A stretch of DNA of 64,000 nucleotides from Phoronis australis (Eukaryota; Animalia; Phoronida), in assembly GCA_002633005.1 (NCBI GenBank), contig NMRA01000007.1, forward strand, positions 1,576,001 through 1,640,000, given 5' to 3'. The translations under genes and the position numbers were made by a program. The notes beneath the pieces are model-generated. The model was not told the origin of the DNA. It made no database searches and saw only the letters and a program-made list of their open reading frames with translations. Shown piece by piece: positions 352 through 64,000 of the stretch. The first letter of the stretch is position 1. Every line of letters starts with the position of its first letter.

Positions 352-3300
352 CAAATAGGACCACACCGACACAAGATGACAGGGGGAAAATTAGCATAGC
401 AGTTGTACCCGTGAAATCTCAAACCGTTACAAACGTTATCAACCGTTACAAGATCAGCCAGGAAACGTCCAACATGCAAGAAAAGACTCGAGTGGACACC
501 ATGGAGTTGGGATTTACAGCTGCTTTTGACATCGAGAGTATAACTACCGTCAAAACAGGTCTCAATTCTAAAACTTCAACAGAACAGTATATTTAATTAA
601 TGTCACATTATTCAGAAATTGTCTCGGATAATGTAGTGAGTTCTGTGTTATAATTAACTGGCCAGGGAAGTTTTATAATCAATGAAACATCATGTCGTGT
701 GGCGCAAGGAATTTCTTCACAGTTATCATAATTGATTTTTTTAAAGTTTCGTATTTTGTATTTTGGCCTTGTCTACTACAAATCTGCAAAAACGGGGTCA
801 CCGAACCAGTTTTTCTCATACAGCCAACTAAACAGAGGCACCACTGGCAAAACTGTGAAACTTACGTGAGTTAATGAAAAGCCACTTCTAGTTAAATTCA
901 TGATTGGAATCCACTTGAAAACGTATTCATTGTTGTACGATGTCAGTTTGATGCTTTAACGAGTTTAATTGTATTTTCCCCGTTCCCTGATTTTCTTATT
1001 TCGGGTTAAGAAAACGTTTCTATGGATTTCAATTACCTCAAATTTTAACGTTTACACGAAAAGTTTTTATTTAATATTTTGTTTCGATGCAGATCATGTT
1101 CTCTATGAAATAAGTTACTAAAAGTTTACTTTTGTGAAATTAATGATTGAAATCATTTTGAAAATGGATTATTTTCGTTGTCCGATGCCAGTTTTAAGTT
1201 TCAACAAGCTTAATTGTATTTTCCGGTTTCCCGATTCTCCGTCACCGCTTGCGTTGGTGTAAGTAAACGTTTTTTTGTTTGGATTATGAGTTCCTCAAAT
1301 TTTAGCGATTTGGCTTCTACTTAAAAATAAACTATCAATTTTCTTTTACGTTTTAATTTGATGCTCATTGGAGTCACCAACTTCACGACTTGTGATGTAT
1401 TTCTAGAGACGACGGTGGACGACAATGATTTCAATACTAACAACAATCCCAACGAACCGGAAGAAGAGCCAGATGCCATAAACGACGTTGTGATGGCGCA
1501 AGAATTCCCGCGTATTGAAGAAGAAGTGTTGGAGGATCTTGAGGAAAAGGCGTCAGGTAGTTTAGATTAATCACATTGATCTTATTTTTACGTCGACGCT
1601 TCCTTTACTCTACGGGTACCTTTGAAGCTGTGTTACATTTATTTTGCACCCAGATTAGGATAGACCGGGTATATATTGTTCCCATTAATGAATAATCGGG
1701 ACTGGCACACCTTCTACAATACAGAATTGCAAGCGAGCACGGATTCAGTCAGACCGCCCGACATTATTCTCGATCCGCGCCTGCCACTTGTTCTTGACGT
1801 CATTTACTTCAGACATCTTTAACGTACATTACATTTTGGAAGTAATGTTCAGGATATTCAAATTGATATCAGAAATCAGTACACTCAATATTCTTGTAGA
1901 AGAAATAGATGTCACGAAACTCGACACCAGATCTATCAAGAGTGAGTTGAGTGGAGTCGACGAACTGGAAAGAGGTGTGTCAACTCGAGGCTCCTTTCTT
2001 GGCAGTGGATTCCACGTAAGGTTCAAATTTCTGTTAGAGCGAGTAGAGAGATATTATGCAACATCGTTGCTTCACGAATAACGTAGTGAAACCGTAACTG
2101 TTGATATGAAATACCGTAATGTCAAGAGAGACAAGCTTGGTGGCATAAACAACAATTTCGTCCACGTTTCATGGTGAAGTGCCAATTAAAATGGTCCATT
2201 GCATTAATTTGGCTTACTTTGTTACAGACCATTATGATGGCCCGTAGAAAGCATGTTGACAGATATGACGCAGTTTCCATTTCGTCACTCGCCAGTAAAA
2301 CAGAGGTAAAGTGAATTGTCTTTTATATAGTCAGACGTTTGCATAAATAATGAGGTTTAAATAGAAAAACCTCTCACATAGAAACAACGTTGTATATTTG
2401 CCCTTGAGGAGTGGTTAGTAGAACATACTTAAGGTTTTGTCTCACCAGAATGACCCACGTTTCCGTCTTCCAGACACGAGAATCATCAACACCTACACCT
2501 TTCTTGGAGAAAGATGAAGTGCCAGGAACCACTGCACAACAAACCTCTTCGACTGACGATGGCAGTATTAGGGCAAGAGATGGAATGGCAGTAAAAACTG
2601 ACGAACAAACCTCTTCAACTGACGTTGGACGCATTGTGGCAAAAGATGAAATGCCAGTAACAACTGCAGAACAAACCTCCTCGACTGATGATGGAAGTAT
2701 TGTGGCAAAAGCTAAAGCAATGTTAAGCAGCATTAGCGCAAAATTTAGGGATGACATAGCTGGAAGATGGCATGAACGTCAGCTGAAAGAAGAGATCAGC
2801 ACGCCTGAAGAAATCACAGATCCTATTCAACTAAATGATGACAGAGGTGATCATGTCAAAGAGAAGGAACTGGAGGCGACGATGACTCTAGATCCTGCAA
2901 CTGTTAATGCGTCGACCACAAGTTCTGCCCAAGACAATACCACGAGGAATACCGATGAAAGTATTACACGTATTGGGTCTGTAGTTGAGGCCAGTGACAT
3001 GTTTCAAAGCTTTTGGATGGAGAAGAACCCGCTTGACGAGACCGTTAATACATACATTCCCGTTAATACAAACATTCCTGAGGTTAGAGTCCAAATGTAT
3101 GAAAACTCAGCTACAGATATCACCGAGGAGCCACTATATTTTTCTAAAGTAGACGAAAACCAACCACCTGTCAGTGCTGATTACAGCAGGGAAACCGAAT
3201 ATTCTGACGGCGACAAGATCGAAAAAGAATTATCGGATATTCCATTAAACAGAGCTGCCATAAGTGAGGACAGGGTCAAAATGGACTACGAATTTACTGA

Positions 3301-3748
3301 CGTGTCGGACGTGGACGAGAGATCGGATGGTTCTTTAATTGCCATTCTGAGTGAAGGAGAATCTGTAGCGACTGACCATGAAGAAAACGAAGGTTTTGAG
3401 ATAGAGGAAGGCGCGCCATCTGTTGCACAGGTAATTCGACGATTAGAAAAACGAGAATCAACAACCTTTGAGGATATTGACTTGAATAGTGATGCTCACT
3501 GGGATGCAGACACACACGACGCTACAAGAAACGAGAATCTAATGACAAAGGAAGAAGTGGCGACAAAAGAACAGACTGCCAGTGCCACTGGTGGCCATGA
3601 TTCTTTCGTGGACGGAGAAATTAGTGGAAATGAAAATAAGAGCGACGAGGAAGCTCCTCCAAAATATGATGTTAAAGCCGTCGCATCACAAGTAGTTTCG
3701 GAGGTTTTCGCAGGCCTTTTCTCTGCGTTCAAGATAAAAAACGACTAA
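352..3748 (+). CDS. Spliced gene (probably 5'-partial) for an acidic, low-complexity, probably disordered protein of unknown family
   Basis: Phase-compatible GT-AG exons at 1407-1556 (phase 1/1), 1900-2015 (1/0) and 2474-3748 (terminal, TAA). A tentative upstream exon at 352-558 has a weak GTCTCA donor. The last exon is a ~424-codon open frame with three ~22-aa repeats (TTAxQTSSTDDGxIxAKD). AATAAA at ~3968. Confidence 0.7.
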
Positions 3749-13100: not shown

Positions 13101-16100
13101 CCGTACCCACATTTCCGGCTCATCAGTTCAGGAACTTGTCCTGAACGCCGACATTTTTTCCTTGTAACTGAATGTGCTATCGCTAGCTCGAAAAGTCTTC
13201 ATTGTTTTGTTTTATTAGCAATATCTCTTGATTCGTTTGCATATGTAGTGTATTTATAGTTTGTAGTTAGTGGTCGTTGAATTTTTTTAATGTTACGCGT
13301 ACTCATTATGTTAAAATAGCATTGGTGTTTAGTTCCTTACCTAGGGCGGTCGAATCTAGGAACCAATTATGAGTCGGACCAATTTTTTTCGTTCTGATTT
13401 TTTTTCTCGTTTTGAAAAAGTACTTTGCTGTCATCGGGAAGGTAGTGCATTCTACTCAGTAAAAATCGAAAAAATATCAAAATCGAGGCAAGCAGTGTAA
13501 AGTTACTGCAATTTTGTGGCAAAATTTGGGTCACTTTGTTTGGATCGCGTCTGCAATATTGGAGGACAGCGGGATAAGTTACGAGTTTAAAACTTTGTGT
13601 AAATTGTTTTCGCCAACAGTTTACGGTGAAATTTAGTGAGACATATCTTTACTTGCTATTCTGCACGGTTCAACAGTGTTCACCAAATTTCAGCCTCGCA
13701 GTTGCTACTCGTTAAGTGATAAATGTGGTCACAATTCCCGTTGGACTTCGTCTCATTTCTGGTGGCACCGACAACATGGCGACTTTTGCTTAACTGGAAG
13801 GCATGTCCAACCTGTTACTTTGTAATTTGTGAAGATTTAACGTTGATACATTTTTACAAACGTTGCTGCAAAAAGGAACTTTGTTCAATTTTCGTGTTTT
13901 TTGTTGCAAAATATAAGATATATTCGAATTATTTTACTGTGAATGTCCCATTCAGGTGATCTTACACAAAAGCTAAAAAAATAGTTGAAATAATTTTGAA
14001 ATGGTTTTTTGTTTGACTGTCAACTGCTGTTCAAGGCTTCATTAGGTGTTACAAAATGAATCATATTTTTCTAAATTTTAAGTCTGAATTGCTTTCAAGT
14101 CATGTTTTGTAACTTATTGCTTCTTAATTCAGGTTATCAAGTCAACAATATGAATAATCTTAATTTGAGAAATAAGCTATGTTGGATTGTGAAGCTTCAA
14201 GCCTCCAATTTTTGTTCCTTGCAACTTCATATTTTTTAATCATGCTTTTCAAATTCTGGTGTAAGAAAACACTATTCGGTCACAATGGTAATAGTTAGAT
14301 GTATGTCCACTTTCATATCATGGAAACTTTTGCTGTTAAATAGTGTTGTAAAGTATTGGGCATTTTAAAATACTTATTATGTTAAAAGGTTGAATCATTT
14401 TGGCTTAATGAATAAAAAATGATAACATTTTGTATTGGACTTGTCATACTTATGTGCTCGAACGAGCCCCCTATTTGTAGAAATGGAAAAAGGTCTGCCT
14501 CAATCAGAGAAGCATGAACTCCGAAAAAAGTAGAAAACGAGACAATATTCCACTAGAAGATAGGAAGTACCAAAATTTAGCGTCTGCAATTCATAGCTCT
14601 GAACATACCCAGTGAATCTTATAATAAAAGATAGACATTCCCAAAAATTCCAGCCCCCCATTTTTTTAGGCTTGGTGGGCTCATACAAAGTCTGGGAAAA
14701 TCTCTGTTGAAAGCCAACAACTTTGCACAGTTCGCCAGAAGTACCCAAGTTCTAAATAGACCTTGTTTCAGCGAGCGCTGTGGTCAGCGACCAGGTAGGC
14801 CTAAGGGTAGCCTTGACGCAAAGCTGTATAGGCCTACTAACAAGCTGTAGTTAGTCTTCATACTGGTAGCTGGCACTGAGGCTAGCTAAGGGCTGCCGCA
14901 GCAGTGTGACACAGGACTAACCAGCCGGTAATTTTATGCAAGTGTCTGAAACTACCTTTGAATATATACGGCATTTATGATTAGAACATTTTACTTCGAC
15001 AAAACAGCTTGCAACCGTATGCCTTTACCGTTCGCCAGTGTTTGGTCTCGATCCGCACCGGGTCCGATAGGCTGCAGTCCCGAGTTCGGCAAAATAATTT
15101 CTGTCAAAATTTATTCCCACATTTCTTCAGTAAATTCGATAAAATTGTCCGTATTTTGCTTTTATTAAAATTAAGGCGCGCTGTCGATTATTTAATCCCC
15201 ATTTGCAGACTGGTAACAGGCACTCGTTCATTCACACTGACGGCGTTTTCTTGGTCTGGGTTCCTGAATGGCTGTGGTTCTTCGGGTGCGAATCGTGAGT
15301 GGTGCGTTCAGTTAAACTTTTTTTGAGTACGGATTGTGTATTAGTTATGGGGTACCTTGGATCTTTATAACATCCTCTAACCATGTAATAAGGGTTAACA
15401 ACGTGATGGGGTACCTTGCATCTTTATAACATCCTCTAACCATGTAATAAGGGTTAACAACGTGTGAGACCAAGACTTTAATTTGACGTGGTTTTTGAGT
15501 TTTTTCTTAAAGTCAGGTCATTTTTGTTAGGTCCTGACGCAAAAGCCTAATATTTTGAAAACAAATTCTAACATCGATTTGGAGAACAGCTATGACCGAG
15601 ACGTAGTTATTCTCTTGGATTTGGAAATAAATGTAACAGAACAATTGATTTGCTTTAGTTTACAATACACACATGCCCACACAGTTATACACGCGCGCGC
15701 GCACACGCACACACACACGCGTGGGCACACACACACACACACAAGTCAAATTGTTTCGTTTCGACTCAAAACACCAATGAAAAGGCACAGCAATGAGGTG
15801 AGCAATACAGAAAACAAATCAGTCAAAGTATCAGAGCCTTACTGGTCAGGTATGTTTTGATTCCATAAGCTGATGGACGTTTCAATTTAAATATGACCTT
15901 TGGACGTGTGTGCCCATTGTAAATATGGCCTCGATTGTCGCTAAAGCGCTCGTTATCTATTTTCTGATATTTCTATACCCGTAACTGAATATGTTTTGCT
16001 TTACAATATAAACACGACAGGTCATAAGACATCGACACTTTATGCGCTTCACATGTGAATTTCAAACAGTATCTTCGTATGTTTTTATAATGAAGGTACT

Positions 16101-19167: not shown

Positions 19168-19980
19168 CAGTGGCGGATCTAGGATATCACAAGGGGGGGG
19201 CCCAACATTTTGTCCGGCTGTAAACATTTGCGCATACTGAACCACGATTGTAGATGCGCATAGCACCAAATGGGGGGAGGCCCAGGAAATTTTTCTGTTT
19301 TGACCTCTAAAAATCAAGTATTTTCCTTGATTCCTGAAGTATTAACCAAGAAAAAAGGCAAAAAAACGGAGAACGTGTCAAACAGGAAAAACTGCAAGTA
19401 CCAAAGACTCGAACTCACTACCTTGCGCATAGAGCGCGCGTGCGTTACCACTACACCACCACGATTTAGCTACTAATCTCATACTAAGAGACGTACTTGT
19501 TTATGGTCCACAGCGTTTGCGCGCGAAACCTACTTCTTTTTGTAATGCTTATTACACGTTTTGTGCCATCGATTCTTAACAAATTTGTCGTATTTAAAAT
19601 AGTCTTAAAATGCCCAAAAGACCTGGAGCCTGTTCCAAGAAACTGACTTAAGTTCATTTTTGACTTAAGTTTGAGATTTGTCTTAACTTCCAAACTTTGA
19701 AACTTCCACATTTGGTAAGTTAGTCAAAATTAAGGCAAAACTTATGTCAAACATTTAAGTCAAACTTAAGATCTCTTTCTTTAATTGGTTTTGAGACAAA
19801 TTTAACTTTTATTTTAAAAATTACTAAAATTTAAGATTTGTCTTAGCTAAGTCAGTTTTGTTGGAACGGGCCCCAAATCCGTTATTCGTGTCGGCAATAA
19901 TGACCGGGGATTGCTTTGGAAATCGTCTTAACATAAGGTTTGACAAAGAGAGTATTGCGAGTTTCTGAGTGATTCACTAA
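19168..19980. mobile_element. CAGTGGCGGATCTAG-type element with an internal tRNA-like segment; inverted homologue at ~46455-47232
   Basis: Extended reverse-complement homology to 46645-47232. Contains a nested TIR element at ~19625-19873. Confidence 0.65.
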
Positions 19981-20504
19981 GGCTTCTATTAAAATTCCCA
20001 TCTTACCAGCAGCTTCTGTTTTTTCATCGTCACTCAGGTTCCATTTTCTTTAAAAAATGAAGTAAATTTTCTTCATTGCACCATAGATTATAGACAACAG
20101 ATTCGCAACTCCGGCATATTCTTACGAGCTGAGTTGACCTCTAATGACCTATCTGCTGCAGTTTCCGGTCAGTTTTAATTTGACGAGAAATACCTGCATC
20201 TACTTTACTGTCCAAAACAGCGAAAAAAACATTAATTTATATTAATTTCGGTATTGAAACGCTTTTCAAAGTCTTTCAATAGTAGAAGTGTTGGTATTGT
20301 GAGTACTTTTGGCAATGATACTGGTAATTAATTTCAAAATTCAAACTTCGGTTCCGACCCTTTATGTCGTCTGCTTGCCCAATAGCAGCATAGTTATCGG
20401 ACAGTTTTTGATTTACGGTTCACATAGGCCTATTGTGAAAACTACGAAAGCGTGTTTATAAATCAACATTCTCAAGTGAGCAGTTCTTCTGGGAAGTGTT
20501 GAGT

Positions 20505-20561
20505 GGCCCTTAAAAGGGCCGTTGGTTGTAGGTATAGCGTGAAATGGTTCTTAAAAGAACC
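20505..20561 (-). promoter_or_regulatory. Two tandem histone-mRNA-type 3' stem-loops
   Basis: On the minus strand: TCAAC-GGTTCT TTTA AGAACC-ATTTC (20561-20546) and CCAAC-GGCCCT TTTA AGGGCC-ACTCA (20520-20505), followed by purine-rich CAGAAGAA. Both have the 6-bp stem, 4-nt loop, GG..CC base and T-A top pair of the SLBP-binding consensus. Confidence 0.75.
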
Positions 20562-20571
20562 GTTGAATAAT

Positions 20572-20930
20572 TCAACATAAATCACACAGTATACCATGCT
20601 CACTCAAGTAGGCCTACTGAAGGTCCTCTTCATTCAAGTTTTCATCTGGAAAGGTTGGATGAAAACAGAGGAGATGACAATATCGATGACAGTTGTAACA
20701 CCTTAGAAAGTTAGATAGATATCACCGTTCACCAACGTTGTCACGAACCCTGCATCGTTCAGTTCTTGTTCCTGTATCCACAAATAATCCTGAACTGTAG
20801 GAAAAAATGACAAACAACACAACGAATCAAATTTCGAAAATCATCGCCTTCGTACGATTCCGTGTTGCTGTCACCAGACTGATGTTCATCTCCAACGTCC
20901 ATCGTAAAAAATCGACGTTGCAAGTGATGG
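20572..20930 (-). pseudogene. Decayed C-terminal PHD finger, possibly a double PHD
   Basis: ERCRVRDNVGER*YLSNFLRCYNCHRYCHLLCFHPTFP...LQ*AYLSEHGILCDLC* shows C4HC3 spacing; the second Cys is one substitution away (CGT vs TGT). Upstream fragments TCNV, NLIRCVVCH and IICGY suggest a second finger. Confidence 0.7.
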
Positions 20931-22743
20931 AAACTTGTCTACGCTCTCGTCCTTTGTTTCTAACCTTTAACCCATTTTTTAATAAAGGGGTGTACTGTTT
21001 TTGGCTCATGTTGATAGTGCATAATCTATGATTTTACAATGTATTAATAGTGTTAAATGCATATATATGAACTGGTCTCATTGAGGTGCACAGCAAATAA
21101 ATTAACTATAACAAATTAAAGTTTTGAAAATATAAAGAGCAGTAACAGACTCCCTAAAAATTAGGCTTGTTTTCGAAAGGTTTGCGCCATTGGTGATCCG
21201 ATTGGTTCAATCGCTTGCGGCGGGAAAATTGATAGACCCAGTTATTGTGCGCGTGTACACTGTATCAATGCTTTGTATCTTATTCTTATTTGTCTAATCT
21301 GTTGATACAGTAAATTTCCTTATTTATGCCCATCCTGATTTAACCCCGACTTGAGCTCCTTGGGTTTTACCATATTGGGGCTGTCCAGGGACTCACGTGC
21401 ATGCGCGCACCCAGTCTTCAAAATGGGGGGCTCGAATTCCTGACGTTATGGAACTGTTGTTAACAAGAGAGCGGGCAGACCTTTTTGCCCACTTCGCCAA
21501 ATGGGGGGGGCTCGAACCCCCCTCCTCTGAGTGGCGCGCATGACGTGGTGCTTACTCGAATGAGTTTCATTTTAGCGGCTATTTCCAATTGTGTAGGTGA
21601 AGTAAATTAACAAAGTGGATGATTATCATCACCGGTATTTCATCATTAGTATTTTTGTCGGCCTCTCAAGTTTTCCGTGGCTAGGGATTGTCACATCTGT
21701 AAGGTAGACGTGTTTCAGTGAACCTCCATGTTTGTGGCGTTATTTATACCTGACCAAACTTTGAAAAAGAAGCCCGCGTTTAAACCAGGAGCTGCATTGG
21801 GTGCAATTTGTGTAGACGTTTCATGCGCGCACCCAGCCTCTAATACGGGGGCTCGAATCTCTGGCAAAGTGGACCTTTTGCTAACAAAAAGCGTGAGAAC
21901 TAAAATAAAAAACGGGGTGCTGCCGTATTGTGGACTTTCGTCTCTTTCTCTTGGACTTTTCCCCTGGGTGCGCGCATGCGTTTGTCTACGTTGCTAGTTT
22001 TTATAAAGGTGGGCCTGTCTGTAGCCAACTACGGTAAATTCATAAAAGGTCACGTGCAGTGCAACTCAAGTTCATTACAAATTAAAAATCCGAACTTTCA
22101 AACCGTTTGATCTGAGTTGACATCTCAAATCAAAATTATGAAAATGCCACATAAAAGTATGAAATTGAAAATTAGCACACGTCAGCTTCACGTCCCTACC
22201 ACCCCCTTTATCTTGCTTGCTACCTCTTAGGGTTCATTTCCCTTGCTTCCGAGGTTTTTCGTTATTCTGGTATTTTCATAGACTGCAGCGTACTTGGCTA
22301 AGATGGTTCAAGTTTTGTGCGGCATACAGTCGACATAAATAATTGAGTATGTAACCTGCTGTTGAATTGCGGGATAGATTTTGACAGGTCCAGGTATTTA
22401 TTTCTGAAGTATTAATGTAATCTTTATTTATGTTAAAGGTTTTACTAGCGTCCTATTTATTTGTACACGAATGTGAATTTGTTGAAATCGCTGATCCAAA
22501 TCCTGGCCAAATCTGCGCATTATGCTGAGACCAACCGTCTGATCAGGGCCACCTAAGAGTAATTTGGTTAATTCGCTCACTAGACTATGGCTGAAGGTCC
22601 TCGTAAGGACAAGAGTTCACCAGTCACTACCATTGGAAGAAATTTAGCGGACATTTTTCGTCAAAAAGTTTACCAGATAGTTTTCATCAAAACGGAGAAA
22701 AGAAAAATGGATTTGTGAAGACAGGATTAAGTAGTAGGCCTAC

Positions 22744-22950
22744 CAGAGCCTCTTAAAAAACACCCATCTTCGAAGTGTCGTGAACAAATGTATGAGTTTT
22801 TTTTTGGAAAGAAAAACTTCCATTCACGTCGACGCAAGAACATAACTTTTTCTCCCAAAGCGGATTTTGTGGTCTTCGTACACTATGGAAGCTAACGCCT
22901 CTGCATTTCGCCTGCGTAGCCGAACAACCGGCCACACAGCAACCGACCAT
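22744..22950 (-). pseudogene. Frameshifted THAP (C2CH) zinc-finger exon
   Basis: MVGCCVAGCS...GVSFH...W, then in the shifted frame LRRREWKFFFPKKNSYICSRHFEDGCF, which is the THAP consensus pattern. Confidence 0.85.
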
Positions 22951-25099
22951 GATTAGCAGACGACGTACTTGCCGGAAATTACACCAGATAATTGAGCCAG
23001 GTGTCGCCAGTGAATAATGACGTAAAGGCTTGTGCGTAAGACCACAGATTTCGTCCATTGAAAGTAAACGGAGTTAGCGGTCCATGTACTATAGTCTATG
23101 ATTGCACAGTGGAGCAGACGACGGAAACTGAGTCGTAGTGCGCAGCGCCACTGCCGGTCGCTTGGGATATCGCGGGAGAGCCAATACTTAGCCATAGTTC
23201 CGTTACGAATGTACATCAGTCATGCTACCTTGTTTGCGTAAAGCGCTGTCTGTTGAGAATTCGACTAGTCAGTCAGAAACGCCTGTGTAATAAAATTTCC
23301 AGAGGAAAATAAATGATACTTGCGTGCTGGCTACTGACCACCTAGCGGCACGCAAGGAACCAGCGAGGGCACAGCCCTGAGGAGAGCAATACAGACAACC
23401 AATCAGTTAAAGTTTCAGAGCCTTAATGGACAGGTATATTTTGTTTCCACAAGCTGACGGACGTTTCAATTGACCCATCGCAAGCTCCGCCCCCTTGCGT
23501 AATGTCGACTAACAAACAATAAGTTTTACCCGGCAACGTGTTGTTTGTCGGGTAAAATGGCGACTTGGAAACGAAGGTGTGTCAAGAATGATGAGTTCTA
23601 AATGGTCAGTTAAGCTGTCACTCAAAATCCTGGCGACAGGTCAATTTAAAACAAGACCTTTGGACGAGTGTGCCAATTGTAAATACGACCTCGATTGTCG
23701 CTAAAGCGCTTGTTACCTATTTTCTGATATTTCTATACCCATATGTCACGTGGTGGATATCCTGCCGATAAGTGGTTGAAACAACGCAGTTTGATTTAAA
23801 TATAATAATGATTATACCACAATAATTATTAGTCTCGAATGGCATATACAACCGTGTTATCTCACTAGTGAGATAACATTTTGGCGGGAAACCAAGCCCG
23901 GATTCGCACCTGGGCCTCAACAGTTTCGAGTCGCCGACTTTACCACTACACCACTCAGCGGCTGACGTCATCGAACGTGAAAATAGAATACTTAATGTGC
24001 ACGCGAAACAATCGCATGTTCAGCAAAGGGCATTGCTATACGCTATGAAAAATAAGACGCATAATTTCCATAAAAACGATATTTTAATTCAGTGAAAATT
24101 TTCTCTTGTGTTCTCTCACTTGTAAATCACCGATCTCCAATTTGAATGCGGGCCTCGTGTCGTCGGGATCCTTTGACTTGAGCATTACAGTCAGTTACTA
24201 GTGGTAATCTACTTTAGCAGACGATATTTTCCCGGTCGAAGCTTAGCGTGATAAAATGTGTAGTTAGCTATGATAGTTGCTAAACCTTAATTTATAGATT
24301 CACTTTATTTCTATTATGTGTTATTTTTCAATTGGTTTTGAGTAAAAGCATTATTTGACAAAAACAGCTCGGCTTTTCTTAAAAGGTCACGACCTCCGAC
24401 CCCGGGCCTCTGACATAGAAAGTAGTCACAAAGCCGAGGCGAGTCGAGAAAGGTAGATCGATTCATTGCAATGTTTCTCGTTCAGTATGTGGTATAAATA
24501 ACGCCCCTCGGGCGATAATTCTCCAAAATCCAATTAGGCTCTAAATAAGGGGGATAACGCCATGTAATAATCTATATGTATATTGACTAAATATTTAAAT
24601 TTTCCTAAATGAAAGATCATAAACATTAATACATGATGACGTTCTCCCGTTCCTAGCGTCGGCCTTGGATCCAGTGTTACACTTGTTGTCTGTGACGAGT
24701 TTTTCTTCTCTTGATCATGCAATCCAGTTTCCAAGCAATCTTCCCTTAATTGGAGAGATACTTCGGATTAATCGTGAAGTTCAGTCCATCGAACATCAGA
24801 TAAATTACGTTAACAAGAATTCAGTCCACCGAATTCTAGATAGGCCTACAATGTATCCCCTTGAAATTCAGTCGAATTTCTGCTACAATGTGTCGAATTG
24901 AAATTCAGTCGATCGAATTTCTAGTACTTGTGACATTTCTGAGCAAACCAGTAGTATCTCCTCAAGAATATCTATGATATCTCTGTAGCAACAGTGCTGT
25001 AGTGAGGCGTAGGCATACGTAAGCGCAGCCAACCACCTTTTGACACTTGAACGTAGCGCCTACGCACCGTAAGTTACGTTCAGTGCTCAAGGTGATACG

Positions 25100-25364
25100 C
25101 ATGCGCGCACCCAGCCCTCAATATTGGGGGCTCGAATTCCTGACGTTGTGGACCTTTCGGTAACAACATAGGCGGTGGACTAAAAAGAAAAAAAAGAAAA
25201 AAAAAACGAAAAAAAAAAACAAAAAACGGGGGCACTACTGTTGCGTGTTTGTGGTTGTTTAAAGGACTTTTGTCTCATTTTCTTGGACATTTTGTTTCTC
25301 GGAGGCGGACCTTTTTGCCCACTTCACCAAATGGGTCCCCGAGCCCCCCGTGGGTGCGCGCATG
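25100..25364. mobile_element. MITE family with CATGCGCGCACCCA termini and 5-bp TSD (other copies 21400-21542 and 21822-21978)
   Basis: Perfect 5-bp direct repeats flank each copy: ATACG, ACGTG and CGTTT respectively. Confidence 0.85.
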
Positions 25365-44100: not shown

Positions 44101-47100
44101 AACTTCCAGTCAAGAAAATACTATACTAGTGAGCCAAAGTAATGTGCACGTGATTATGTTGGTGAATTAGCCACGAAACTGCAAATCTACTTACTCGTCG
44201 GGGGCCGCGAATTCAGGTTCCGCTTTGGTCACAGCACCGTCAGGGCAGAAGTCGTACATTGACAATCATTATTTGAGTAATCATGTGATGTAAATGTAAA
44301 TAAAGATTCCCCTAACACCTGGCCGTGGGATGGAAATCGAGTTGTTTCACAACAGTTTCTGCCAGCAAACACTAAATTAGCATGAGCTCACACGGCCTAC
44401 CCGTCAATTAGATTTATTGCACTTCAAAAGCCGGTAACGCAGTGATTTATTCATTGCTGGCTTCTCAAATCATTTGCACTCACGAACACTGCAAAGGCAT
44501 TACAAATTGCATCTAATGAGACAGACTTTGTTTCAGTTTTATAAAAGTATTGGTTAGGGTGAGAATAATTCATTTTGAAACAGAACGCTCAGTAATCATA
44601 AACGCCAACATGGCAACTCGCAATCCCGACTTTGGACGAGCTCTGAGAGCTCATCAGTCCCGACTTCGCAGGTGGATCGTTAAGTTTTACAGGCTATCAA
44701 TTTGAACAGGAATACAGTGATCAAGAAATACTAGAGAGGCGCCGTGAACAAGCTCAGACAACGGAACGTATGCAGTTATTTGGTAAGCCGACCGGCATTC
44801 CTCAGGCACTGTCGACGTATGCAGGCCACAGACACGGAGATGTTTCACGGCCTCATACTTGCTATTTACAGCATACATTTCATTCTTCACTGCCATGACC
44901 CACTTCCTAAGCACTCTCGAGGAAGTAAAAAAAACGATATACCCGCTTTCCTCGCAGCTGCTTAGTTCGGACAAGCGGGAACGATGCACCGCAACATAGT
45001 GGCATTCACTCTGCATATGAACCACTGACGTCGCTGGCGTCGTTTCTCACCTTCCTAACAGGTTAACGCGACACCTCTTGGCAAGGTAAGGTCGACCGTA
45101 TGCGAGGCGATGTGGATATAGACCGATTAAGGCGGCAAAAAAGACTAATTAAATCGGGTGGCATTCTCCTTTAAGAGACATGCGTATGTCAAATGTATTT
45201 ACTCTTTCAATTTCTTGGAAATTAAGGGCTAAACCAACACGTACATTTAATTTTTGAGTACTTAAATTTTCATTCTGAAGGATCTGTGACTGCGTGACGT
45301 GAACGACGGATGACCTGAATAGTGGTCAATTGCCAACGACACAGGCGGGGTGAGAGCAAGGCTGAAGGTTCTCTTATCACAACTTTGCCGTGTTGCAAAA
45401 GCTGACTACGGATTTTGGAAACGAAATAATTTCAGTGTGGGACGGTTAGATCAAGTAAAAGCTCATTGCCATTGCACTGAAATGCTTTTGTTCGTAAACA
45501 ACGGATCTTAATTGGCAATAATAAGATATGGTCGAAAGTACTTGCATGGAACCGACGAAATCACAGGTCGTTGCACCTCTAGGAATTAGAACAGCCAGCA
45601 ACGATAGTATGGCGAATACCTGGAGAAGAAAACAAACATCTAATGAAAACATGAAACAGATAATTTCATTAAAGTCGTACTACTTCCTCAAACAACCGAT
45701 ACGTGGCAGAATACTATAACAGTTGTTAACTCAGAGCACCGTTATGGATTCAAATCACGCTACAACAATTACTATTTCCATAAGCAACCGACCCTGAGCA
45801 TGGATGCACCGATGAATGTATCAATTAGGAGTTTTTTGGGGGAATTTAGCATACGTCTACCTCCACTTGTTCATTAACAATTCATGTCTGGGGGAACTTT
45901 CTAATCGCTCTCGTGTACGCACCTTTTGAGAAAACTATTATAGCTCGCGAGTTTTGCCAAAATGCTTTTATGACCAAATTTTTTTCTCAAATTCAACCAA
46001 AAATGAATCGAAGTAAGTTTTGACTGGAAAACCACTAGATTGGTTTGAAGAATGTACGTACTGGATAAGTCGACACCATACACAAGGTCAAAGCTTTCCT
46101 CGACGAGCTTTGCCGAGCTTTCACGGTGTAGATAAGAGTATCCAGCGAGACGACCAGGCACAGAATGACGGACAATGAGCAGATGACAAACAGCGCAACA
46201 TCTCCCCCTTTCCACACTGAAATAAATTGAGTATTTTGAAAACTCTGCTGCACACACCTTATTATGAGCATAAAATTACGAAACATCATTGTGTTCCTTT
46301 TGAAAACTTGTCCGTTTCACTTGTTTTGTGTTGGAATACACTAGTGGATAATGAAGTCGTCGACAAAAATGCTCGCGTGAATCAGGAAGTCATTGATAGA
46401 ATTCAGATAACCGTCGAATGACGTCACTAAGGTATGAACTCACTTAGCTATAGACATAGGTGGATTTAGGGGGGCCCCATCCGCCCCCTTGGCTGCGGCA
46501 AAAAAAAATAAAACAGCAAGAATGTAGGGAAAAGTTGAGTTTATTAATTAACCCCGGTAATTAAAATCATACGGATGAAACAAGATTTGAATGTGTCCAG
46601 TTTTAGTGTTGNACAGCGCATTCGTAACTGAACTGTGGCTAAATATAGAGAATCACTCAGAAACTCGTAATTCTTTCTATGTCAAACCTTAACTTAAGAC
46701 GATTTTCAAAGCAATCCCGTCATTATTGCCAACATGAAAAACGGATCTGGTCTTTTGGGCATTTGAAGACTATTTTAAATACAACAAATTTGTTAAGAAC
46801 CGATTGCACAAAATATAAAACGTGTAATAAGTATTACAAAAACAAGTAGGTTTCGCGCGCAAACGCTGTACAGACCATAAACAAGTAGGTCTCTTAGTAC
46901 AATATTAGTAGATAAATCGTGGTGGTGTAGTGGAAAAGCGCGCGCGCTCTATCCGCCCGGTCGTGAGTCCGAGTCTGTGGTACCTCCAGTTTTTCCTGTT
47001 GGACACGTTATCCGTGTTTTTGTTTTTTTGCCTTTTTTTCTTGGATAATACTTCAGGAATCAAGGAAAATGCTTGATTTTTAGAGGAAAAAACAGAAAAA

Positions 47101-51627: not shown

Positions 51628-53246
51628 AAATAGAGAATCCTACACTCGTGTCAGGTTTATGGCATGAGGAAAACCCTCTTGGAAATTTCGTTAAATTTCC
51701 AAGAGGTTTTGCTCATGTCATAAATCTGAGACGAGTGTAGGATTTGCTTTCTCAAACGAACCGTAAAAACGATCTTTTTGCCAAAAAACTCGACGTGTCT
51801 AAAACTTTCAACCACATGACGCTACTTTTGTAAAAACACGCTTGCGCAATGTAAAATAATTCAGTTGCTTTTTGTTAATAGTTTTATTTTAAGATTAACA
51901 ATTGTAAATTGCATTCAGCTTTCGTAGCACATATTCAAGTTAGAATCTAATCGAATAGTCTTTGAAGTTGTAATATTAAAACTTGAAAAATGTTTATAAA
52001 TAACAGTCAGCAAGGCTTCACCGCGCGTGAGCACAGGATTGGCCTTAGACAGCACATCAAGTCGCGTTTCTTGAGTTGGGGCTCGTCTCCGTTTGAATGA
52101 AAGTGGATATGGAATTCGCCGCCGAAGATGGGTCCGTTTAAGAAGTTGTTTGCATGTCCTTCCGAGTGGGAGTACGTACAGTTGCGGCACCCAATTTGAC
52201 AATCACAGCCTTGTCACCTTCTCGGAATTCCGGCGTTGTTTGGTTGACGCGCGTTTGGTTGTTTTAGTGTTTTGCACACGATAGAATGTAAGGCGTATAG
52301 ATTTCTGCTTTGCACTTCTTTGTGATTTGCCCATGTAACATAAAAAAATTACGTACTCGGTGTTATACCACAATATTAGCGTCAAATGGCAATTGCAACC
52401 GTGTAATAACCCATAAAGTTATCTCACTAGTGAGATAACGATATGGCAGGAAACCGAGGACGGAGTCGAACCCGGGACCATGGACTTGCTGGTCGCCGAC
52501 TTTACCACTACACCATGCAGCGACTGACGTCGTCAAGAGTGAAAATAGAATACTTAAATGAGTACGCGCAATAAACCTCATTGTACTGTACTTATACGCT
52601 ACGAAAAATAAGACACATAATTTCCATAAAAATGATATCTTAATTCAATGAAATTTTTCTCTCATGCCCTCTTACTTGTAAATCACCGATCTCCAGTTTG
52701 AATGCGGGTATCCTGTCGTCAGGATCTTTGAATTGAGAATTATATTCAGTTACCAGTGGTAACCTACTTTAGCAGACGATGATTTCCCGGTCGAAGCTTA
52801 GCGTGAAAAAAACGTGTTTTAAGCTATAATAGTTGGTAAACCTTAATTTATAAATTCAATTTATTTCTATTATATTTAAGTTTTCAATTGGTTTTGAGTA
52901 AAAGCATTATTTGACAAAAATAGCTCGGCTTTTCTTAAAAGGTCACGGGCCTCTGACATAGAAAGTAGTTACAAAGCTGTGGAGAGTCAGAAAAGGTAAA
53001 TCGATTCATTGCAATGTTTCTCGTTTAGTATGTGGTATAAATAGATTATTACATGTTCTCAGCCGTTATCCCCCTTATCTAGAGCCCTCGTGGATTTTGG
53101 AGAATTATCACCCTAGGGGCTAACGCCCCTCGGGCGATAATTCTCCAAAATCCACTCGGGCTCTAGATAACGGGGGATAACGACTTCGCCATGTAATAAT
53201 CTATGTTTATTAACCAGTCGTGTCGTTACACTTTAGTTCATGTGAG
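51628..53246. mobile_element. Insertion specific to unit B, bounded by long hairpins; its right part is shared with 23790-24575
   Basis: Absent at ~29325. Near-perfect palindromes at 51636-51744 and 53041-53204, with an internal tRNA-like segment. Confidence 0.65.
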
Positions 53247-61997: not shown

Positions 61998-63398
61998 TCA
62001 TTTTCGTTTTGACTTCCTGGAATTTTGGTGAAGTCTCATATGGCGAGCTGGCACCAACCTATGTGTCGAGCACTGTTCGAAGTTCAATAACTCCTTCAGA
62101 CCAATCAAATCCTTTATGACACCGTATGTGCAAAGCTGGTCTATGCTCCCCAGAATAGAGCGGCCACCTGATGCACGCTGCATGGACTTCCGGACGGAAA
62201 TGACAGACAGTTATTGAAGAGACAAAGGGCTGTGAAGGTGGCGTCTCAGCATTCCGATATATCGAGGATCTACTTTATAAAACATCAGTTCTTCTGCGTC
62301 GATCCACTGCTCACCATGTATAGGATATCCACTAGCTTCAAGGAGGTGAAAAAATTGTACCAATTTCTCCGTAGAGTATTTGTTACGAGCCGGAACTTGT
62401 TTCAAAAGAACGAAGCTTAATTTTCTGATTCTATGGTTACGATGTATGACGTATCGTGGGCATGCAATTTTGTCAGCATTGACAACTGCGCCATGCTTAA
62501 TTAAGCACCGAACTATTTCCAAGGAAGGCTTCTTCTTGAGACAAGCCAAATCAACAGCACGCATACCCTTGCTAGTTACAGCATTGTAATTAGCCCAATA
62601 GTGTAGGAGAATGTCCACAATGACTTCCTTGGCGTCGTGTGCTGACACTGCAGAATGAAGTGGCGTAAAGCCATTCCCATCCTTGATGTTGACATGCGCA
62701 CCAACCTTTAAAAGAAATTTAACAACTTCTTCTTGACCCGACCTCACAGCGAGATGGAGAGGGGTCATGTTTGAACGGTTCTGTGGCTGATTAACATTCG
62801 CACCCAAACTCACCAGGCATTTAACAGCTTGAAGGCTGCTTTCAGAAGCCAAGCCAAGTGCAGGGCGCCCACTGCCGTCAACAATCAAGCCAGCACCAGC
62901 TTTGTGCAACATTTGGATCATTTCAACATTTTCAGAGCGTATAGCGTAAAACAATGGTAATCGCTGGCTCCCAGGCTCTCCGGGAATGTCCGCGCGTCCA
63001 AGACAATCTACTTTAGCACCGTGCTCTAACAGAACTTTGACCACTTCCTTATGAGATGAGCGAACAGCCAAAGTCAGAGGTGACTCAGCTCCATTTTCGT
63101 AGCTCACAGCGGCCCCGGCTTTCAGTAACATTTTAACAATATTCAAGCGACCTTTTCTTGCCGCGTAGTGCAAGGGACCCCATCCGTCATTTCCACATAA
63201 ATTTGAAGAGGCTCCATTCTTTAACAGAACATCCACTACTTTTTTGTGACCGTTTTCACAAGACACGTGAAGTGCTGTTCGTCCCCACAGCCCACAGCCT
63301 TTGTCTACACTGTCTGGGTATTCTTTCAGGATGATCTTCACTTCATTAGCTCTGCCTTCTTCCGCGGCAGAATGTAACGGCAACCAATTAAGCTCCAT
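61998..63398 (-). CDS. Ankyrin repeat and SOCS box (ASB-like) protein, with an in-frame TAA at 62211-62213
   Basis: 395-aa ORF with about 8-9 ankyrin repeats (GRTALHVS, GWGPLHYAA, MTPLHLAV, GFTPLHSAV). The same frame continues past the TAA: SPLSLQ*LSVISVRKSM...IDQL...IKDLIGL, ending at TGA 61998. A splice acceptor (ttttgcag) lies just upstream of the ATG. Confidence 0.85.
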
Positions 63399-64000
63399 CG
63401 TTCATCTGCAAAACGAAGACATCAACTTTCATTCGGATTTAATAGACGAGTCTCTGACACTGCACATCGTCTTTAGCGCCATGGCAATTAATGGCCATAG
63501 ACTAGAGCAACAGTCGATATTTCTTACCAACTTATCGCATCCAATGAATGACCATTCTTCTTAGAAATAAACACGGTGGGCGCGTGGTGTAACTGTTGGT
63601 GGTTGCTGTTATTTCCAAAAATACGTGACTGCTCTGGGGAATAAGAGAGCCGTGCTTCAGCAAATGCCAGCAGCGATATCCTCATTTCAATCAGACGAAC
63701 TGACAACATAAGACAGTATGACTTTCAAAGAAATCCTGAAGCTCCTGCACAGAGTCAAATGGTCCTTACAACTATACTAGGCCTAACCAAAGCCCTCAAA
63801 ATATAGGTCTACCGATAGTTTACTAGATTAGTGGAGCTGGAATACCATATAAGTTCAAGCAAGTTGTTCTAGACGAGTTAACAGCCGCAAAACTCGACAC
63901 TAAGTGTCACACCTGTCACAATGAAATGACCACCCCAGAACGTGCAAAACCTGACGTGCAATTGCCGTAAAACAATCTAAGAACAGGCTAATTTGATAAA

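Follow-up and report, generated by a model that had tools for sequence, protein, structure and literature searches.

A 64-kb stretch of the genome of Phoronis australis (contig NMRA01000007.1; hereafter the window) harbours a decayed, P-like DNA transposon at positions 20082-23100, in which a short gene for a PHD finger is followed by two tandem hairpins of the type that terminates histone messenger RNAs (mRNAs). We assign a probability of roughly 0.55 to the proposal that in intact copies of this element the distal hairpin, together with the purine-rich tract behind it, would form the 3' end of the PHD message by means of the host SLBP/U7 pathway. This proposal gains support from two sides: the distal hairpin resembles histone genes in its score, spacing and tract, and unrelated mobile genes feature the same layout. 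Judged by its sequence, the arrangement represents a known RNA signal in an apparently new setting, a P-like transposon, and its comparative support is good. The pertinent passage of PMC6303110 describes histone mRNAs as the only known metazoan coding mRNAs with a hairpin end. Throughout, minus-strand features are given with high-to-low coordinates.

The two hairpins, each 16 nucleotides (nt) long and preceded by CAAC, are located 10 nt (proximal) and 51 nt (distal) past the PHD stop codon, as had been described in the initial annotation of this DNA. Both consist of a 6-bp stem, whose pair 2 is G-C, and a 4-nt loop, whose position 3 is U, and both fold as drawn (the distal hairpin alone with -11.5 kcal/mol). 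A strict hairpin pattern is found twice in the window and in none of 200 resampled 64-kb windows. No Rfam match in the window other than the distal hairpin reaches gathering level (RF00032; 36.0 bits versus a cut-off of 34 bits), and the proximal hairpin (22.8 bits) falls under that cut-off; the comparison with RF00032 proposed earlier thus favours one of the two hairpins. According to the passages concerned in 10.64898/2026.10.14.759114, histone mRNAs carry diagnostic hairpin bases and a spacing of 25-60 nt between the stop codon and a 26-nt element. This spacing amounts to 46 nt for the distal hairpin and to 5 nt, outside the range, for the proximal one. The purine share at +12 to +22 is 0.64 for the distal and 0.36 for the proximal hairpin, compared with means of 0.74 at 21 histone sites and 0.48 at nine bacterial look-alikes. 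The ACTCA flank and the purine-rich tract (CCAGAAGAA, at +13), which had been noticed after the distal loop, are likewise confirmed, and so are the compensatory differences between the two stems, since stem pairs 3 and 4 are changed in both of their partners.

Reads of three RNA runs (X7, X8 and X9; library type not stated) and of one DNA run (X1) were placed on positions 19600-23600, and the resulting account of differences covers 40 of the 848 letter differences and 15 of the 122 joints. The estimated read depth across the hairpins is similar to that of the PHD gene, with 71 (X7), 69 (X8) and 199 (X1). Just downstream of the hairpins, at 20433, the reads show other letters in 54 of 58 and 59 of 60 cases. 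Given this depth and these divergent downstream reads, other copies of the element likely also hold the hairpin pair.

The layout of a hairpin shortly past a stop codon recurs at loci that are not related to the element. A scan of prokaryote assemblies with the hairpin pattern yielded 48 stretches, many of which are contaminating animal contigs, and Rfam searches in ten of the contaminated assemblies added further sites. The 45 de-duplicated sites were sorted by eye into 21 histone, 15 non-histone animal-type and nine bacterial sites; L014 (a copy of L011), L012 and L019 (copies of L013) and the viral L002 were left out, L058 failed the flank filter, and L071 is also outside the site set. A frame of at least 70 amino acids (aa) with its stop 15-55 nt upstream of the hairpin is present at 19 of the 21 histone sites, at 10 of the 15 non-histone animal-type sites and at two of the nine bacterial sites. 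Among the positions in non-histone contigs 8.5% qualify by chance, and against this background the 10 of 15 correspond to a binomial p of 4e-8 (12 of 24 and p of 1e-7, if the nine bacterial look-alikes are pooled with them). The ten qualifying non-histone hairpins all lie 19-27 nt past the stop; the other five sites are devoid of such a stop. In an alignment of 13 non-histone sites all 78 of the 78 stem cells pair and two pairs are changed on both sides, a count that leans towards structure, since the sites were chosen by the hairpin pattern.

Several of these loci are recognizable as parts of mobile elements. A Harbinger-type element (L047:317-2552) encodes a DDE_Tnp_4 transposase in two frames, probably separated by an intron, with a hairpin of 41.9 bits 27 nt past the transposase stop and a convergent BESS-motif gene alongside; it is the cleanest candidate for a transposase with a histone-type end, because the hairpin follows the transposase itself. 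Three MADF (Myb/SANT-like) genes, which look intronless, are followed by a hairpin at 19-25 nt and then by a purine tract (L009, 37.6 bits; L024, 42.7 bits; L038, 31.8 bits), and since these three contigs lack a transposase, their tie to Harbinger is presumptive. In a Polinton/Maverick element with a chromodomain-bearing integrase, an A32 ATPase and a protein-primed polymerase (L011, equal to L099:14556-15054, with L014 as a near-identical second copy), two adjacent cysteine-rich genes each end in a histone-type hairpin (32.7 and 28.9 bits). Hairpins also follow a RING gene (L049, 41.0 bits) and three unnamed frames (L041, L057 and L060), and a Merlin/IS1595-like transposase frame (L068:521-868) bears one of 35.8 bits at its very end. 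A second tandem pair, with the hairpins 29 nt apart, is located after a short frame of unknown kind, none of at least 70 aa being present (L070:602-675). Histone-type 3' processing has thus likely been borrowed repeatedly by mobile elements, as far as sequence features can tell. The wider claim that P-like, Harbinger, Merlin and Polinton elements repeatedly took over the SLBP/U7 pathway, yielding tail-less messages that S-phase cells would produce and eggs would store, we regard as evenly balanced.

Related hairpins were also encountered in virus-like surroundings. Histone hairpins terminate a RING gene and a small gene rich in cysteine on two gene-dense, virus-like contigs (L100:5011 and L101:184), in the vicinity of a kinase gene and a decayed IS605-OrfB-like frame, which we take to be TnpB/Fanzor-like. 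The viral contig L002, which consists of one long polyprotein frame, contains two hairpin look-alikes inside the coding sequence (1660-1681 and 2636-2655). The tandem-hairpin pattern was not found in metagenome contigs, and single-hairpin patterns returned 0, 1 and 1 stretches from viral contigs, where the match lies inside a long coding frame and was set aside.

A literature search covering titles, abstract openings and, in part, longer result lists retrieved no paper that describes transposon genes with histone hairpins, and word look-ups in selected papers found no mention of them either. Lopez and Samuelsson (2008, RNA 14:1) may, reportedly, have touched upon hairpins near THAP or transposon-related genes.

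The gene in front of the hairpins reaches from an ATG at 20902 to a TGA at 20574-20572, the latter in agreement with the PHD end noted previously. Its product scores as a PHD piece with an E value of 0.02, and the N-terminal match is weak (hhalign, E 0.005). A search of 1.84 billion representatives with the PHD sequence returned four matches, two of which are real relatives. Two pieces of the region match P0001 at 58-75%, and the P0004-P0017 family is matched in three frames between about 20878 and the stop at 20572. The family includes P0015, an annotated protein of the zebra mussel Dreissena polymorpha (KAH3730070.1). Its members are mostly stand-alone proteins of 107-110 aa, which start at the same acidic motif, and this fits a short intronless gene. 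The C4HC3 ligand pattern is present in the family alignment, and PHD_NSD scores above the cut-off for P0004, P0008 and P0009. In a structure model of P0009 (predicted local distance difference test, pLDDT, of 79), PHD fingers lead both fold searches, albeit weakly (Z of at most 4.3 with a root-mean-square deviation of 3.0 over 68 aligned residues; best Foldseek E value 0.39). A sequence search of the PDB gave matches of E 0.1 or worse only, and in the Atlas P0001 had no usable match and P0009 matched generic PHD clusters below 0.9. Viral and prokaryote genome collections yielded no member of the family, and five contaminated assemblies gave two chance-level rows only.

The frame of the PHD gene is interrupted at three positions, each of which coincides with an insertion or deletion in reads of other copies: these are one base longer at 20801 (19 of 79 in X7), eight bases shorter at 20703 (31 of 58) and six bases shorter at 20609 (24 of 43). 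On the evidence of these unphased reads, other copies likely retain an open frame. A PHD-internal intron was considered and dropped, since P0001 carries that stretch as coding sequence. Of the earlier description, neither a double PHD finger, where the family alignment shows a single one, nor a continuous gene running from THAP to PHD is upheld: no splice joint is seen among the 15 of 122 joints covered, and the relatives stand alone. The PHD is probably a stand-alone, intronless gene with a start codon of its own rather than the tail of a THAP protein. Its company appears to vary. On the contig L001:1-2465 the PHD stop is located 2 nt ahead of a long DDE-like transposase frame (with one internal stop and, presumably, Sola-like motifs) and no hairpin is present, a layout that is possibly bicistronic. 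As L001 suggests, transposons of more than one kind host the PHD gene, and the hairpin signal does not accompany it in every case.

The element itself is an insertion bounded by 12-bp terminal inverted repeats, CATAGATTATAG and CATAGACTATAG, which are identical at 11 of 12 positions, and flanked by the 7-bp target-site duplication ATTGCAC at 20075-20081 and 23101-23107. A CANRG start is typical of P element ends. The empty site is represented by RNA reads in which 20074 is linked to 23101 with seven letters in common (164 in X7, 159 in X8 and 105 in X9); the DNA run X1 contains the adjacent joints 20069-23101 and 20064-23103, the exact 20074-23101 joint being absent, and the insertion target is itself a repeat. 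Upon read placement, 13 DNA contigs exit the left end of the element into dissimilar flanks, joints at 20100-23084 and 20314-22932 mark internally deleted forms, and one DNA contig is about 88% identical over 20628-20973. As read from flanks, joints and reads, the element is a multi-copy family with derivatives of the miniature inverted-repeat transposable element (MITE) type, with the proviso that read depth is no measure of how many copies exist and that allelic variants may look like separate copies. The present copy is dead.

Near the 5' end of the element on the minus strand, a frameshifted THAP exon begins at 22950. Its two pieces, in two frames, cover profile positions 1-36 and 36-60 and fall below the Pfam cut-off (E 0.086 for 22950-22807 and E 0.00097 for 22849-22756); a word search with the N-terminal piece found nothing. 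No transposase core (DDE with D(2)H) is matched by 78 of the 84 stop-free frames of at least 24 aa, and the remaining six overlap the C-terminal half of the PHD. A target-site duplication of 7 or 8 bp is a criterion for the P superfamily (passages of PMC3698922). Most of what the initial annotation stated on this subject is corroborated, namely the terminal repeats with a perfect 7-bp duplication, the minus-strand THAP exon at the 5' end and the failure to find a transposase core. Its assignment to the P elements is upheld by the duplication, the THAP pieces and the terminal repeats, yet since the defining catalytic core is absent, the element is filed as P-like only: it classifies as a decayed, non-autonomous, P-like DNA transposon without a transposase.

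A number of observations weigh against a histone-type 3' end of the PHD message. The proximal hairpin departs from histone hairpins in three respects, as it is below the cut-off, too close to the stop and without a tract. The present copy has three breaks in its PHD gene, and the hairpins of other copies are deduced from depth, not from letters (40 of the 848 differences covered). RNA reads of X7-X9 are about equal on both strands and continue past the hairpins without a drop or a pile-up of ends; as the type of these libraries is not stated, the reads neither show nor exclude a tail-less message. The contig L001, the sole PHD relative with readable DNA, lacks a hairpin and passes directly into a transposase gene, and the THAP contigs L096 and L097 are also without a hairpin, though their gene ends may lie outside them. 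The distinction between animal-type and bacterial contigs was made by eye. Finally, a 12-nt direct repeat, overlooked in the initial annotation, flanks the hairpin pair, as a passive insertion would leave it (chance 0.4-0.8%, spotted post hoc). Its match is equalled in none of 547 other windows of the element, in seven of 2000 shuffles and in 25 of 3000 random site pairs.

Owing to this repeat, the hairpin pair may have entered as a 97-nt insertion. A separate nested insertion had been named at the outset as a finding that would speak against histone-type processing; the repeat keeps this possibility alive. In its simplest form, a 97-nt cassette with both hairpins would have inserted at the PHD stop with a 12-nt duplication (20578-20567 and 20469-20458) and been copied along unused. 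This is consistent with the PHD gene of L001, which lacks a hairpin, with the other nested insertions already hosted by the element, and with the RNA reads, in which no end occurs at the hairpin; the compensatory differences, too, could derive from the donor. Yet a rough calculation for 2.7 kb and two orientations gives an insertion at random a chance of only 1-2% of ending up in sense orientation some 60-90 nt or less past the stop, unrelated mobile genes share the hairpin placement, and the repeat was spotted post hoc in AT-rich sequence. We hold an idle passenger to be somewhat unlikely. As for the donor, a histone-gene fragment is an unsupported candidate, since no histone remnant was found in the element or the window in a comparison with 16 histones.

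The same signal might act on a different message or in a different manner. A single spliced message encoding THAP, possibly a transposase, and PHD could end at the hairpins, so that the signal would control a DNA-binding or transposase protein. THAP and PHD are on one strand, a donor-like site follows the THAP exon, no second hairpin closes the THAP gene, and the read joints covered number 15 of 122, so that a splice joint may lie among the others. Set against these points, the family members stand alone and start at the same motif, no longer homologue was found among 199 candidates (a weak search), there is no acceptor-like site just ahead of the PHD start, and 78 of the 84 frames are without a transposase match. 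We deem such a fusion distinctly unlikely; it is a question of gene structure and can hold together with a histone-type 3' end. Alternatively, the hairpins could end read-through transcription in the element, or the RNA could be a decoy for SLBP or be destroyed at the end of S phase, and thus restrain the element. The tandem arrangement with one hairpin lacking a cleavage tract would suit this role, as would the second tandem pair in L070 with no frame of at least 70 aa ahead, and the fact that the gene concerned is an accessory gene rather than the transposase. At most other sites, however, a single hairpin follows the stop at a short, constant distance, a spacing relevant to translation-linked control, and in L047 the hairpin follows the transposase itself; a terminator or decoy is decidedly improbable.

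If the distal hairpin does provide a histone-type 3' end, the known histone pathway predicts the following course. SLBP would bind the distal hairpin, the small nuclear ribonucleoprotein (snRNP) of U7 would pair with the purine tract at 20492-20484, and CPSF73 would cut the RNA about 5 nt past the stem; the roles of SLBP, U7 snRNP and CPSF73 in histone 3' processing are outlined in passages of 10.64898/2026.10.14.759114. The resulting tail-less PHD message might build up in S phase or be stored in eggs, where an oocyte Slbp2 has been described (in the part concerned of PMC6239174). The proximal hairpin would likely not direct cleavage but represent a duplicate of old date or offer SLBP a further binding site; a short insertion at the stop codon may have brought in the pair as a whole, which would then have been retained. 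For the PHD protein an accessory role in chromatin binding is predicted, in which it may pick targets or protect or repress the element, and the element would be moved by the THAP transposase of a putative autonomous relative. The co-option of the histone pathway suggested by the initial annotation is thus strengthened by the score, spacing and tract of the distal hairpin and by the same layout at unrelated mobile genes, with the modification that the gene ahead of the hairpins is probably a PHD gene of its own and not a THAP-transposase-PHD fusion.

Should the proposed 3' end prove true, mobile elements would have a ready means of confining their activity to early embryos or to times at which a sister chromatid is available. 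Cut-and-paste movement under these circumstances raises the copy number. P excision leaves a gap, as stated in a passage of PMC4168063. Transposition would thereby be coupled to replication and the germ line, and a histone-only pathway would gain a second class of clients. Moreover, such transcripts would be hidden from poly(A)-selected RNA data, and poly(A)-based surveys would undercount transposon activity.

Features of the P-like element and its immediate boundaries
Feature	Position	Strand	Remarks
Target-site duplication, left copy	20075..20081	.	same 7 bases at 23101-23107; one copy in empty-site reads
Terminal inverted repeat, 12 bp	20082..20093	+	11/12 like other end
12-nt direct repeat, right copy	20458..20469	-	11/12 like 20578-20567
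Purine-rich tract, predicted histone downstream element	20484..20492	-	CCAGAAGAA; 13 nt past distal hairpin
Distal histone-type stem-loop, CCAAC and ACTCA flanks	20500..20525 (stem 20520-20505)	-	RF00032 36.0 bits; predicted cleavage near 20500
Proximal histone-type stem-loop, no downstream purine tract	20541..20566 (stem 20561-20546)	-	RF00032 22.8 bits, E 0.005
12-nt direct repeat, left copy	20567..20578	-	spans last PHD codon and stop
Broken gene, one atypical PHD finger, ~110 codons	20572..20902	-	probably intronless, own start codon
Nested MITE, CATGCGCGC ends, 5-bp duplication	21400..21542	.	very deep read cover
Second nested MITE, same family, 5-bp duplication	21822..21978	.	
Possible second THAP-gene exon, limits approximate	22345..22550	-	read by eye from translation; no Pfam match
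Frameshifted THAP-domain exon	22743..22950	-	Pfam THAP in two frames; donor-like motif near 22744
Terminal inverted repeat, 12 bp	23089..23100	-	11/12 like other end
Target-site duplication, right copy	23101..23107	.	same 7 bases; empty-site reads

The two nested MITEs inside the element had been overlooked in the initial annotation. A third copy of the CATGCGCGC-ended MITE is located at 25100-25364; the family is of high copy number, and all three copies have 5-bp duplications. The flanks of the element (19401-20081 and 23101-24100) form a nest of high-copy repeats, further copies of which occur near 15800, 46700-47000, 49800 and 52400-52650. Elsewhere in the window, an acidic, low-complexity open frame of 446 aa without a Pfam match (2408-3748, plus strand) is probably an exon of a host gene, and a 5'-nucleotidase exon (PF06189; 56220-56675, minus strand) and an ankyrin-repeat frame (62211-63401, minus strand) represent host coding pieces.

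Compared with known systems, the element shares with the P superfamily (P, 1360 and Galileo) a 7-bp duplication as in 1360 and Galileo, an N-terminal THAP, a length of about 3 kb and the occurrence of internally deleted derivatives with both ends (passages of PMC3698922 and PMC4168063). It differs in the lack of a catalytic core, the very short terminal repeats, the additional PHD-finger gene and the histone-type hairpins; the passages on the P superfamily in these two papers make no mention of a PHD gene or of histone hairpins. Its PHD gene has counterparts in mollusc-type DNA transposons, whose small PHD proteins (P0004-P0017) likewise stand alone and agree with it in the atypical finger, where a long insert separates the first cysteine pair from the second, in the N-terminal acidic motif and in length, whereas the PHD gene of L001 is without a hairpin and is followed after 2 nt by a long DUF7869/DDE-like frame. 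Harbinger elements, with their transposase and Myb/MADF gene (L047, L009, L024 and L038), and Polintons (L011) show the same hairpin-plus-tract past the stop, yet they belong to superfamilies unrelated to the element and encode unrelated proteins. In the histone mRNA 3' end, defined by RF00032, the downstream element, SLBP, U7 snRNP and CPSF73, the hairpins are not tandem and the gene is not a PHD finger in a transposon, for which processing is predicted from the sequence. The likeness extends to the 16-nt hairpin with its diagnostic bases, the AAC 5' flank and the ACTCA 3' flank, the purine tract at +13, the place shortly past the stop and the probably intronless, short gene.

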